From a virus (lineage: Duplodnaviria > Heunggongvirae > Uroviricota > Caudoviricetes): a DNA stretch of 8,869 nt. The notes under the pieces were generated by a model, which saw only the letters and a list, made by a program, of their open reading frames with translations, was not told the DNA's origin and made no database searches. Each line of letters begins with the position of its first letter. Position 1 is the stretch's first letter. Location of the stretch: the IMG/VR virus record IMGVR_UViG_2740892258_000018, positions 1 to 8,869 of that record; one strand, written 5' to 3'. Below are positions 5,278 through 8,869 of the stretch, piece after piece. The translations under genes were made by a program, and so were the position numbers.

Positions 5278-5723
5278 TGGATTTCAGTCTTGATTTTTCC
5301 GGCCTGGCGGATATTGCACGGGATTTGGAGACGCTCAGCAGGGCAGAAAACAATAAGGTTCTGCGCGATGCCACCCGTGCCGGTGCTGAAGTTATGCGGG
5401 ATGCAGTTGTTGAACGTGCGCCGGAGCGAACCGGGAAACTGAAGAAAAATGTGGTTGTTCTCACTCAGCGTTCAAAGCGTCGGGGGGAAATTATCTCGGG
5501 TGTCCACATTCGCGGACGGAACCTGCGAACCGGAAACAGTGATAACAGCATGAAAGCCAGCGATCCCCGAAATGCATTTTACTGGCGCTTTGTGGAGCTG
5601 GGAACGATAAACATGCCCGCGCATCCATTCATTCGCCCGGCTTTCGATACGACAGAGGAACTGGCAGCACGGATTGCTATACAGCGAATGAATCAGGCTA
5701 TTGATGAGGTCTTAAGTAAATGA
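5277..5723 (+). CDS. HK97 gp10-family phage protein (neck/tail-attachment component)
   Basis: ATG at 5277 overlaps the upstream TGA (TGATG), indicating translational coupling. About 148 aa, with the ERAPERTGKLKKN segment matching the P..TG.L pattern of the gp10 family. Confidence 0.65.
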   Translation: MDFSLDFSGLADIARDLETLSRAENNKVLRDATRAGAEVMRDAVVERAPERTGKLKKNVVVLTQRSKRRGEIISGVHIRGRNLRTGNSDNSMKASDPRNAFYWRFVELGTINMPAHPFIRPAFDTTEELAARIAIQRMNQAIDEVLSK

Positions 5724-6055
5724 GAGAGGCCACACTGTATTCCCTGTTGTCTCAGCTGGCCGGAGGACAGGTTTATCCTTATGTGGTCCCACTGACGGAG
5801 GGAAAGCCTGCGGTATCTCCGCCGTGGCTGGTGTTTTCTGTGGTGTCTGACACGGCATCTGATGTGCTTGATGGGCAGGCTGAATCCAGAATTACCGTGC
5901 AGATCGATGTCTGGGCGACAGTACCTGATGACGCAGATAATATTCGTGAGCAGGCGCTTGATGCGGTAAGAAAACTGGCTGCCGCTACGGTCCGATGCGT
6001 GAAAACCCGGGCTTGCAGCGACCGTTCCGGTCGCGCCGCCCCTGTCGCGCCGTGA
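5720..6055 (+). CDS. DUF3168-like protein (gp11-like tail completion/neck protein); C-terminus possibly altered
   Basis: ATGA overlap with the upstream gene at 5720-5723. N-terminal two thirds (LYSLLSQLAGGQVYPYVVPLTEG...WLVFSVVSD...ITVQIDVWA) fit DUF3168 proteins. The last ~20 aa (RCVKTRACSDRSGRAAPVAP) are Cys/Arg/Pro-rich and read like translated GC-rich non-coding DNA. Confidence 0.5.
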   Translation: MREATLYSLLSQLAGGQVYPYVVPLTEGKPAVSPPWLVFSVVSDTASDVLDGQAESRITVQIDVWATVPDDADNIREQALDAVRKLAAATVRCVKTRACSDRSGRAAPVAP

Positions 6056-6439
6056 CCTGCGCTCCCTGCACACCTGACGGTGTGTGAGGAAACTGCGCCT
6101 GATGGCGCAGCAGTCCTCCCTCCTGCCGCCCCCCCTGCGGCCTGTTTCCCCGCTGTGGACTTTCCGGGGGGCAGACGTAACCCCCTCCCGTTCCATCTGT
6201 CCAGGGTGAGATGCACCGGCCACAAAATTTTTAGCCATGAACCCGGCAAAAAATTTTGCGTCCGCCCCCGGACAGCTGCCCCGTGAGGCGGTAAACGGGC
6301 CCCCATCGGAAAGGTCCACTGCGGGGAGAAACCCCTGTGAAGTGGACGGCAGGAGGAGCTTTCGCTCCTCTGAAGGGGCACATGAACGTCCCGTCGCCGG
6401 TATCCGGTTTATCTCACATCTTTCAGTCAGGAGGTTCTT
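6056..6439 (+). promoter_or_regulatory. GC-rich structured non-coding region upstream of ssb; candidate single-stranded-DNA promoter (Frpo/ssi-like)
   Basis: 384 bp with no credible ORF. Nested imperfect inverted repeats: CACACC/GGTGTG (6070-6084); CTGCGCC/GGCGCAG (6093-6110); long-range arms CCCGCTGTGGACTTTCCGGGGGG (6148-6170) versus CCCCCATCGGAAAGGTCCACTGCGGGG (6300-6326); inner AT-rich pair CACAAAATTTTT (6219-6230) versus AAAAAATTTTG (6248-6258). Ends at the ssb SD AGGAGG (6429-6434). Plasmid leading regions are known to carry ~300-nt hairpin-forming ssDNA promoters upstream of ssb, psiB and ardA. Confidence 0.45.
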
Positions 6440-6967
6440 ATGAGTGCACGTGGTATCAACAAGGTCATCCTCGTCGGGCGTCTGGGCAATGATCCGGAAG
6501 TCCGTTACATCCCCAACGGGGGCGCAGTGGCAAACCTGCAGGTGGCCACATCAGAAAGCTGGCGTGACAAACAGACGGGGGAGATGCGGGAGCAGACGGA
6601 ATGGCACCGCGTGGTGCTGTTCGGCAAGCTCGCGGAAGTGGCAGGTGAATATCTGCGCAAGGGTGCGCAGGTCTACATCGAAGGTCAGCTTCGCACCCGT
6701 AGCTGGGAAGATAACGGTATCACCCGTTACGTCACTGAAATTCTTGTTAAGACCACGGGCACCGTGCAGATGCTGGGACGTGCACCACAGCAGAACGCTC
6801 AGGCGCAACCGAAGCCTCAGCAGAATGGGCAGCCACAGAGTGCTGACGCGACGAAAAAAGGTGGCGCGAAAACGAAAGGCCGTGGACGTAAGGCCGCGCA
6901 GCCAGAGCCTCAGCCGCAACCGCCGGAGGGGGAGGATTACGGGTTTTCAGACGACATCCCGTTCTGA
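6440..6967 (+). CDS. ssb: Single-stranded DNA-binding protein, conjugative-plasmid type
   Basis: 175-aa ORF with AGGAGG SD 5 nt upstream. N-terminal OB-fold ([99 protein letters not shown]), a Gln/Pro-rich linker and the acidic tip DDIPF. The linker is [21 protein letters not shown] rather than the Gly/Gln-rich linker of chromosomal E. coli SSB, so it resembles F/IncI plasmid SSB more closely. Confidence 0.95.
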
Positions 6968-7024: not shown

Positions 7025-8869
7025 ATGAGCGAATATTTCAGAATACTTCAGGGACTCTGCCCTGCTGGCGCAGACGGAGGAAGTGAGCGTGCCGCTGGCC
7101 TCGCTGATTAAATCACCGCTGAATGTGCGCACGGTGCCGTATTCTGCGGAGTCCGTCAGCGAACTGGCGGAGTCCATTAAGGGCGTCGGACTGCTGCAGA
7201 ATCTGGTCGTGCATACCCTGCCTGGTGACCGTTACGCTGTCGCCGCAGGCGGTCGCCGACTGGCAGCACTCAACATGCTGGCAGAGCGCAACATCCTTCC
7301 GGCTGACTGGCCTGTACGCGTGAAGGTCATTCCGCAGGAGCTGGCGACTGCCGCATCGATGACCGAGAACGGTCAGCGTCGGGATATGCACCCTGCCGAA
7401 CAGATTGCCGGATTCCGCGCAATGGCGCAGGAAGGCAAAACGCCTGCACAAATCGGTGATTTGCTGGGCTATTCACCCCGCCACGTTCAGCGAATGCTTG
7501 TCAGGCGCTGGCGCTGGAGAACGACACCGCGCGTCAGGTGCAGGTGTTTGAAGCCGCCTGCCAGTCGGGATGGGGCGGTAAACCGGAAGTACAGACCATT
7601 CGTCGTCTGGTGACCGAAAGTGAAGTGGCGGTGGCGGGGAACAGTAAATTCCGCTTCGTGGGGGCTGATGCCTTCTCGCCAGACGAACTGCGCACCGATT
7701 TGTTCAGCGATGACGGGGACGGTTATGTCGACCGCGTGGCGCTCGATGCCGCCCTGCTGGAAAAACTCCAGGCTGTCGCAGAGTTCCTTCGGGAAGCCGA
7801 AGGCTGGGAATGGTGCGCCGGACGCATGGAGCCTGTCGGTGAGTGCCGTGAAGATGCCCGGGCATACCGCAACCTGCCGGAGCCGGAAGCGGTGCTGACG
7901 GAGGCGGAAGACGAACGTCTGAACGAACTGATGGCTCGTTACGACTCGCTGGAAAACCAGTGTGAGGAATCTGACCTGCTGGCAGCAGAAATGAAGCTGA
8001 TTGACTGCATGGCGAAGGTCAGGGCGTGGACGCCGGAGATGCGTGCCGGAAGTGGCGTGGTGGTGTCCTGGCGTTACGGTAATGTGTGTATCCAGCGTGG
8101 TGTGCAGTTGCGCAGTGAGGATGATGTGGCTGACGACGCTGACCGCACGGAACAGGGGCTGGAGAGCGCGTCAGTGGAGGAAATTAGTCTGCCGTTGCTG
8201 ACTAAATTGACCTCAGAGCGCACGCTGGCAGTCCAGGCAGCACTGATGCAGCAACCGGACAAATCCCTGGCACTGCTGGCATGGACGCTCTGCCTGAATG
8301 TGTTTGACAGCAAAGCGCATAGTAGTCCCGCCAGAATTCGCCTGGAATGTGAGCATTATGCGCTGACCAGCGATGCACCGTCAGGGAAGGAAGGTGCCGC
8401 ATTCATGGCGCTGATGGCAGAACACTCTCGTTTTGCTGCCCTGCTGCCGGAAGGATGGGAACGGGATATGACGACGTTCCTGTCACTTAGCCAGGAGGTG
8501 CTGTTATCCCTGCTCAGTTTCTGTACCGCGTGCAGTCTTAACGGTGTCCAGACCCGCGAGTGTGGTCACACGTCACGCAGTCCGCTGGACTCGCTGGAAA
8601 CCGCCATCGGCTTTCACATGCGCGACTGGTGGCAGCCGACAAAAGCAAACTTCTTCGGACACCTGAAAAAGCCGCAGATTATCGCAGCCCTGAATGAGGC
8701 CGGACTGTCCGGTGCCGCACGGGACGCGGAGAAAATGAAGAAAGGCGATGCGGCTGAACATGCAGAGTTCCATATGAAAGACAACCGCTGGGTGCCTGGC
8801 TGGATGTGTGCACCACGTCCACAGACGGATGCCACTGAACACACCGCTAACCTGGCTGATGCCGCCTGA
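7025..8869 (+). pseudogene. ParB-N-domain (ParB/sulfiredoxin-like) protein gene of plasmid leading-region type, interrupted by two frame changes
   Basis: ATG 7025 (GGAGA SD 7012-7016) opens MSEYFR... but stops at TAA 7109-7111. A second frame is open from 7029 to 7613 and carries the ParB-N-like core (GVGLLQNLVVH...AAGGRRLAALNML...RDMHPAEQIAGFRAMAQEGKTPAQIGDLLGYSPRHVQRML). From about 7502 the first frame resumes (QALALENDTARQVQVFEAACQSGWGG...) and runs ~455 codons to TGA 8867-8869. The three segments together make one ~600-aa protein. Confidence 0.7.
7031..7050 (+). repeat. 10-bp tandem duplication (GAATATTTCA / GAATACTTCA) in the first codons of the ParB-like gene
   Basis: Direct adjacent copies at 7031-7040 and 7041-7050, one mismatch. 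Removing one copy fuses ATG 7025 in frame to the ParB-N domain, giving MSEYFRDSALLAQTEEVSVPLASLIK... Confidence 0.7.

Follow-up and report, generated by a model that had tools for sequence, protein, structure and literature searches.

An intact ssi3 repeat, a predicted class-1 single-stranded DNA promoter, upstream of ssb in a phage-plasmid sequence that is probably chimeric

The stretch of DNA analyzed here (hereafter, the window; 8,869 nucleotides) combines phage and plasmid sequence. From position 1 to ~5976, it carries an HK97-type phage head module, identified by Pfam matches, that encompasses the large terminase, portal, prohead protease, major capsid, connector, head-completion, gp10-like and gp17-like tail-completion genes and is 99.1-99.9% identical to Escherichia coli siphoviruses, for example, vB_EcoS-569R6. 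From position 5977, the window matches the leading region of conjugative IncI/K/B/O/Z plasmids at 99-100% identity; in these plasmids, ssb, a ParB-like gene, psiB and psiA run rightward toward nikA and oriT. The position of ssb is the same in three native plasmid loci (L001, L003 and L006).

Between the stop codon of the last phage-derived open reading frame (ORF), at 6055, and the ATG of ssb, at 6440, lies a 384-nt gap (6056-6439) that is, as the first-pass annotation had it, the longest stretch of the window without a credible gene. Four mechanical ORFs overlap this gap, two of them (68 aa each) essentially contained within it; none of the four matched Pfam, and protein coding inside 6056-6439 was rejected. 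The region is indeed GC-rich: the GC fraction is 0.64-0.69 at 6001-6300, ~0.50-0.55 in the phage-derived left 6 kb, and ~0.56-0.65 in the ssb/ParB-like DNA to the right of the gap. The left edge assigned to the region at 6056 had to be moved, given that plasmid homology begins at 5977 and the repeat unit described below begins at 6042, 14 nt inside the annotated phage-derived ORF. The coordinates of the features discussed in this work are collected in Table 1.

Table 1. Features of the ssi3 element and its surroundings in the window
Feature	Position	Strand	Basis
Phage (left)/plasmid leading-region (right) breakpoint	5977..5979	.	Phage match up to 5979, plasmid match from 5977
Upstream flank bearing small hairpins	5998..6118	-	No variation in helices 10, 11 or the inner pairs of helix 9
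ssi3/'Frpo3' class-1 ssDNA-promoter repeat (predicted), complete	6042..6373	- (T-strand orientation)	blastn against ColIb-P9 ssi3
Main imperfect T-strand hairpin, 238 nt	6119..6356	-	DNA-parameter MFE -105.4 kcal/mol, z -10.2
Hairpin 3' arm, non-template role	6119-6236	-	Two-arm layout of fold
Probable -10 zone TTACGT, facing plus-strand TAAACG (6292-6297)	6175..6180	-	Fold layout; putative hexamer
-35-like hexamer TGGACA, 5/6 to TTGACA, non-template arm	6198..6203	-	Read from sequence; fold layout
A/T-rich apical stem, 19 bp, GCAAAATTTTTTGCC / GGCTAAAAATTTTGTG	6217..6264	-	Inverted repeat I1; helix 7
Apical loop, 8 nt, GGGTTCAT on T-strand	6237..6244	-	Predicted fold
Hairpin 5' arm, template	6245-6356	-	Two-arm layout of fold
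Predicted transcription start, ~7-8 nt past the -10 zone, template arm	6303..6305	+	Suggested by fold layout
Shine-Dalgarno AGGAGG of ssb	6430..6435	+	Sequence
ssb, 175 aa, first gene of the ssi3 operon	6440..6967	+	PF00436, E 2.4e-37

The five entries listed as 'known Frpo/ssi' in Supplementary file 4 of Samuel et al. 2024 were used as references in blastn comparisons, in line with the alignment to plasmid leading regions and Frpo/ssi elements that had been proposed as a check. The ssi3 sequence of plasmid ColIb-P9 (AJ238399.1:11381-11711) aligned with the minus strand of the window (6373-6042) at 98.5% identity over its full length (331/331 nt), with only four substitutions and one indel separating the two. 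The paralogous ColIb-P9 repeats ssi2 and ssi1 also aligned at full length, at 86.7% and 80.4% identity, respectively. For F ssiD (Frpo1), the match was 76% over 80 nt of the core only, the identity to the F Frpo core ranging from 76 to 80% across ~80 nt, and F ssiE had no blastn match in the window. The larger segment 5977-6439 is 98.9% identical over 463 nt to the ssi3-ssb region of pESBL, whose ssi3 is in turn 99.1% identical to that of ColIb-P9, and the ssi3-ssb region is 100% identical in many IncI/K/B/O/Z plasmids. In the PLSDB plasmid collection, the element matched 156 records at 99% identity or higher and 2026 records in all at 80% or higher, 94% of which are predicted to be conjugative; the number of matches rises to more than 5000 once the F-type core is included.

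We consider it highly probable (about 0.92) that the repeat is an intact ssi3, a class-1 (Frpo-type) single-stranded DNA (ssDNA) promoter of IncI-complex conjugative plasmids, its promoter role being predicted. The earlier proposal of a candidate ssDNA promoter thus stands with respect to the type of element but not with respect to its novelty: this ssi3 is a previously characterized element. By the same sequence comparison, the region is assigned to class 1 together with the F Frpos but falls outside the F-type Frpo1/Frpo2 subfamily, because it shares just 76% identity with F ssiD over 80 nt of the core.

The nested inverted repeats noted at the outset were recovered by a repeat finder. Repeats I2 (6147-6163/6311-6327) and I7 (6160-6171/6302-6313) jointly make up the outer arms of ~25 nt (6147-6171/6302-6327), I1 (6217-6236/6245-6264) is the A/T-rich inner palindrome, and I3 (6119-6131/6344-6356) lengthens the stem outward. 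Folding of both strands as ssDNA, also suggested by the first-pass annotation, yielded an extended, stable hairpin on the predicted template (minus) strand, which is the better folder. The minimum free energy of 6056-6439 is -108.2 kcal/mol (z -8.2) for the minus strand versus -95.5 kcal/mol (z -7.0) for the plus strand, and for the ssi3 segment proper, the respective values are -105.4 kcal/mol (z -10.2) and -87.1 kcal/mol (z -7.3), a difference of 18 kcal/mol in favor of the minus strand. Significance was assessed with 100 dinucleotide shuffles and DNA parameters, and no shuffled sequence was as stable as the original in any of the four folds. In the predicted structure, a 10-nt bulge on the non-template arm separates the A/T-rich apical stem from the helix that contains TGGACA. 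The apical stem is kept in relatives from IncF plasmids, Serratia and Salmonella, and F Frpo2 and ColIb-P9 ssi1, each folded independently, adopt the same architecture as the window hairpin. When tested in M13, the activity of ssi3 itself reportedly depended on orientation and structure.

Evolutionary support for the fold was sought in an alignment of nine IncI-type copies with a mean column identity of 88%: that of the window, those of ColIb-P9 (three), pESBL (one) and an IncK plasmid (two), and two further variants. The T-strand structure pairs 92.9% of the alignment cells, compared with 44-48% when the partners are slid by 1-3 columns. Twelve pairs are changed on both sides; shuffles gave 6.6 +/- 1.3 such pairs, none of the 500 attaining 12, and the controls with slid partners gave 0-5. 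Many of the single-sided changes lead to G·T, a pair that is possible on the minus strand only; 19 pair columns contain G·T and five contain A·C, a count that is biased because the source fold permits G·T. All nine copies share three unchanging G·T pairs, one of which lies in the -35 box. The window copy itself has six G·T wobbles and no facing A·C, and as a control, its symmetric internal-loop positions also contain no A·C, only purine-purine and T·T mismatches. The best fold of the plus strand has 18 fewer pairs. When the promoter core was aligned across families, both the apical stem and the -35 helix were retained; only three compensatory pairs emerged, the core being too strongly conserved for covariation to say much.

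The direction of the downstream genes constrains the layout of the promoter. RNA polymerase must run toward ssb, and therefore, the template is the 5' arm of the T-strand hairpin and the 3' arm is the non-template, which places the boxes on the minus strand at 6175-6203. The -35-like hexamer is fully paired with 6269-6274; its first base forms a T·G wobble that is kept in 9/9 copies (columns 108/175). The first five bases, TGGAC, are invariant in the nine IncI-type copies, the sixth base being variable, and are also found in both F Frpo1 and Frpo2. The probable -10 zone, 17 nt past the -35 box, is rich in mismatches and bulges, and both TTACGT and the facing TAAACG are poor matches to TATAAT; in this model, the mismatched zone is a plausible pre-melted region. 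A start at the predicted position would give ssb a leader of ~135 nt ending in AGGAGG, followed by the ssb ATG. By analogy, the A/T-rich apical stem, located upstream of the -35 box, would by its position resemble an UP element, a reading that follows Samuel et al. 2024. The minus-strand hairpin is, then, supported by compensatory pairs, conserved G·T wobbles, the A/T-rich tip and the invariant, paired TGGAC(A) box.

Covariation alone would fit either a DNA hairpin or a palindromic protein-binding site, given that a palindrome bound by a dimer would also covary and that nested inverted repeats can be operators. It is nevertheless very improbable that the region is an ordinary double-stranded regulatory region, with a sigma-70 promoter and palindromic operators. 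The G·T asymmetry favors the hairpin, with conserved wobbles, which are pairs of the single strand only, outnumbering A·C, and the arms of ~110 nt, interrupted by bulges, far exceed the length of an operator. Furthermore, a scan of 5900-6500 as double-stranded DNA detected no sigma-70-like sites on either strand, and according to the literature, the downstream genes are silent in established double-stranded plasmids and are induced only on entry. Equally hard to credit is a structured RNA (an ssb leader, riboswitch or small RNA) in place of folded DNA. With a start at ~6304, the outer part of the right arm (6304-6356) would lie within the ssb leader, so that the 5' end of the mRNA would be structured. 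However, the left arm is located upstream of that start, and the full hairpin would be absent from the mRNA; the sense (plus) strand folds less stably, by the 18 kcal/mol given above, and the wobble pattern favors the minus strand. A search of the whole window against Rfam 15 produced no covariance-model match even at E<=1, a null result that is expected for an element that is DNA.

The reading of the repeat as an ssDNA promoter is in line with what has been described for its relatives. Bates et al. 1999 described three dispersed Frpo-homologous repeats within ColIb-P9's leading region and proposed that they serve as T-strand promoters; the three paralogous copies per native plasmid that we observed agree with this description. 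For the F plasmid, Masai and Arai 1997 are reported to have shown that single-stranded Frpo forms a stem-loop with -35 and -10 boxes that RNA polymerase uses for both transcription and priming in vitro. By RNA sequencing of pESBL during early conjugation, Wen et al. 2025 (NAR gkaf1299) placed ssi1-3 and the F Frpos in one category of ssDNA promoters, 'class 1', and used 5' RACE in pESBL transconjugants to locate where transcription of each of the six early operons begins. The ColIb-P9 ssi3 and its pESBL orthologue are the class-1 ssDNA promoter of the ssb-psiB operon of IncI1 plasmids, and the genes downstream were named 'the ssi3 operon' by Benz et al. 2023. Finally, an anti-CRISPR gene driven from Frpo confers protection on the plasmid solely if carried on the T-strand within the leading region (Samuel et al. 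2024).

A mechanism can be proposed on this basis. The minus strand is the transferred strand in native plasmids, as shown by their gene order and orientation relative to oriT. On entry into the recipient, the T-strand would snap into the 238-nt imperfect hairpin of the predicted, covariation-supported fold, and the stem would rebuild a duplex promoter in which an UP-like A/T tip and the paired TGGACA box are followed, after 17 nt, by the mismatched, partly open -10 zone. Of these parts, the -35 box is read from the sequence; the UP-like role and the -10 hexamer we infer. As in the ssi3/Frpo literature, host sigma-70 RNA polymerase would then bind and transcribe the 5' arm outward, into ssb, the ParB-like gene, psiB and psiA. 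The transcript may also prime synthesis of the complementary strand, as observed in vitro for F Frpo, and once that strand is made, the hairpin would be ironed out and the promoter switched off, as the literature describes.

The priming step raises the possibility that the hairpin is chiefly a site of single-strand initiation for complementary-strand DNA synthesis, with gene expression as a by-product. We regard this as a tangible possibility but would not bet on it. Masai and Arai are reported to have found that the F Frpo RNA remains hybridized to DNA and, in vitro, serves DNA polymerase III as a primer, and early conversion events that are sensitive to rifampicin have been described in vivo close to ssp1/Frpo loci (2026 preprint). 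Nevertheless, deletion of Frpo1 or Frpo2 abolishes the downstream genes' expression in published work, the window shows no similarity to the primosome-type F ssiE, and a priming role is compatible with a promoter role because one transcript would serve both.

Comparison with known systems places the window copy closest to ColIb-P9 ssi3 and its pESBL orthologue, with which it shares sequence, length, the position abutting ssb, gene order and the predicted hairpin; it differs from native ssi3 loci in that the left flank turns into phage DNA at 5977 and the downstream operon contains deletions. The ssi2 and ssi1 repeats of ColIb-P9 keep the helices through compensatory changes but serve other operons (an ORF after ardA and a DUF4942 gene), and in ssi1, the loop is also shorter and the apical stem contains a G·G mismatch. 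The F Frpo1 (ssiD, ssp1a) and Frpo2 (ssp1b) resemble the window element in the long T-strand hairpin, the A/T-rich tip, the TGGAC -35 box and the role, and Frpo2 also abuts ssb; apart from the ~80 nt central part, however, their arms are unalignable with those of the window by blastn. Judged by sequence, the IncF-type Frpos and the IncI-type element of the window are separate subfamilies that are distant relatives. The outer flank to the left of the hairpin is far better conserved between the two types: ~70 nt (5998-6070) are 93-94% identical to sequence beside both F Frpo1 and F Frpo2, as against the 76-80% for the promoter hairpin. This flank holds small hairpins (6086-6118, 6069-6084, 6047-6062 and GACCG-TTC-CGGTC at 6020-6032), the cores of which are invariant among the IncI-type copies.

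More remote are the class 2 and class 3 elements (ssp2 upstream of klcA/ardA/ardB and the M.EcoGIX promoter, respectively), which are likewise leading-region hairpins that rebuild -35 and -10 boxes but lack sequence homology to class 1 (Wen et al. 2025); ssp2 additionally acts as a replication roadblock (2026 preprint). Primosome-type sites, such as F ssiE, and rolling-circle sso are also folded ssDNA that starts RNA synthesis on an incoming or displaced strand, but they only prime and do not drive gene expression.

ColIb-P9 carries one copy that abuts ssb (27924-28254) and two more at 34957-35282 and 37848-38176, all to the left of nikA/nikB and oriT; the arrangement recurs in pESBL and in an IncK2/Z plasmid. 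Across IncI-type plasmids, one class-1 copy stands ahead of ssb, one ahead of an ORF that follows ardA, and one ahead of the DUF4942 gene. In all native plasmids examined, the element lies in the leading region, co-oriented with the downstream genes and toward oriT. Accordingly, of the three genes upstream of which such elements had been expected, ssb is confirmed, whereas psiB lies inside the ssi3 operon and ardA has a class 2 ssDNA promoter. The expected gene orientation relative to oriT likewise holds in native plasmids but oriT is not to be found to the right of this window: ssb directly follows the element, and leading-region homology stops 1.7 kb past the window, before ardA, where ColV DNA begins.

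An exact match to the protein encoded by the chimeric ORF at the junction came from a single source, contig CVOH01000144.1 (82.7 kb) of assembly GCA_001245225.1; in locus L130 (1-20336) from this contig, the window occupies positions 4282-13150. The contig contains, in order, chromosomal hprS-hchA-porin DNA that matches ST95 genomes at 100% identity; part of an HlyD-family gene from an IncF plasmid; the phage head module, which lacks its right end and apparently also its left; an IncI-type leading region extending from just left of ssi3 to just before ardA; and a Bor-family (bor/iss-like) gene with etsCBA, 100% identical to ColV plasmids. At the phage-plasmid breakpoint, a three-way comparison showed an overlap of 3 nt, GGC. 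The break falls inside the tail-completion gene; the native phage gene extends 85 nt beyond it, and the last 26 codons of ORF 5720-6055 are accordingly plasmid-derived. At the other end of the module, the large-terminase ORF (1-1338) matches the ATPase profile only from position 55 of 178 and is directly preceded by the unrelated plasmid gene fragment (L130 3592-4281), so the terminase is probably N-terminally truncated by a blunt join. The break at 5977 does not coincide with a natural edge of the repeat module, as the native ssi3/ssi2 paralogy extends ~105 nt further left.

Compared with native plasmids, the leading-region fragment has three internal deletions, of 341, 67 and 437 nt. The first, at 7053/7056 with a 2-nt filler, and the second, at 7498/7499, have removed a DUF905 gene and the start of the ParB-like gene, which is split into ORFs 7089-7613 and 7610-8869; the third truncates psiA just beyond the window. 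The joins along the contig are all blunt or have at most 3 nt of microhomology. The contig is probably chimeric, with a scaffolding or gap-closing artefact as the simplest explanation, because it strings together pieces of four replicon types through at least seven arbitrary joins in ~12 kb, each piece being 99-100% identical to living replicons. If so, the strain would be host to this prophage and to two plasmids, one ColV and one of the IncI complex. The junction is not spanned by any record in PLSDB, INPHARED or a set of 5,426 complete E. coli genomes. A 40-nt probe across it had no match among contigs from viral, genome and metagenome collections, and in complete ST95 genomes, the porin gene is followed directly by drpB, without an insert. 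We accordingly think that the phage/plasmid junction is unlikely to be real; ssi3 itself is intact whether the contig is chimeric or real.

If the contig were real, the element would never be delivered in single-stranded form by conjugation, with phage DNA on its left and neither oriT nor ardA on its right. This would make it an inert relic, a leading-region fragment truly recombined into a chromosomal/prophage mosaic and therefore silent. The order of the contig, chromosomal hprS-hchA-porin, then phage, then a leading-region fragment with three internal deletions and devoid of ardA and oriT, speaks for such a relic, but we consider it unlikely: pieces of ColV plasmid flank the phage/IncI block on both sides, and the density of blunt joins between near-identical copies of living replicons, together with a junction that no other public record spans and the uninterrupted ST95 site, suits a chimeric draft contig better than biology. 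An improbable biological scenario would have a 4.6-kb leading-region piece (ssi3-ssb-psiB) end-joined, with little or no microhomology, into a phage/ColV mosaic near hchA in an ST95-like E. coli; that piece might derive from an incoming T-strand fragment after aborted conjugation. Were this true, the locus would be a footprint of the capture of leading-region DNA by a recipient, with an ssDNA-only promoter beside phage packaging genes. A probable chimera in a public draft would mislead analyses of phage-plasmid hybrids.

The broader interest of ssDNA promoters is the head start that they give to anti-SOS, anti-restriction and ssDNA-binding genes, which are turned on before the plasmid becomes double-stranded; such early firing helps resistance plasmids past host defenses. 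The copy described here adds no new biology, but it shows that the element is recognizable from sequence alone.

A search of species-representative genomes with the degenerate pattern CTGTCCGGGGG-N50-80-CCCTGGAC returned, among the matches listed, unrelated sequences from many phyla and no usable divergent relatives. One form, CTGTCCGGGGG-N77-CCCTGGAC, came up repeatedly among the matches listed (L007-L086), with the same 96-nt span across many unrelated phyla of bacteria and archaea; this is suggestive of either a gene conserved universally or a widespread contaminant, with no relation to Frpo.

Annotation pipelines miss the ssi3 element or cover it with 'hypothetical protein' calls. In many RefSeq plasmids, ORFs so labeled run into the repeat (L001 11751-12032; L006 8467-8838), and the element itself is never annotated in those plasmids; such ORFs are probably annotation artefacts of GC-rich, structured DNA. 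Native plasmids contain another repeated non-coding element, upstream of the klcA-like and ardA antirestriction genes (L001 10171-10400 and 17120-17352), and the leading-region fragment of the source contig ends inside a copy of this repeat, to the right of the window (L130 14613-14845); this is probably the published 'class 2' ssDNA promoter.
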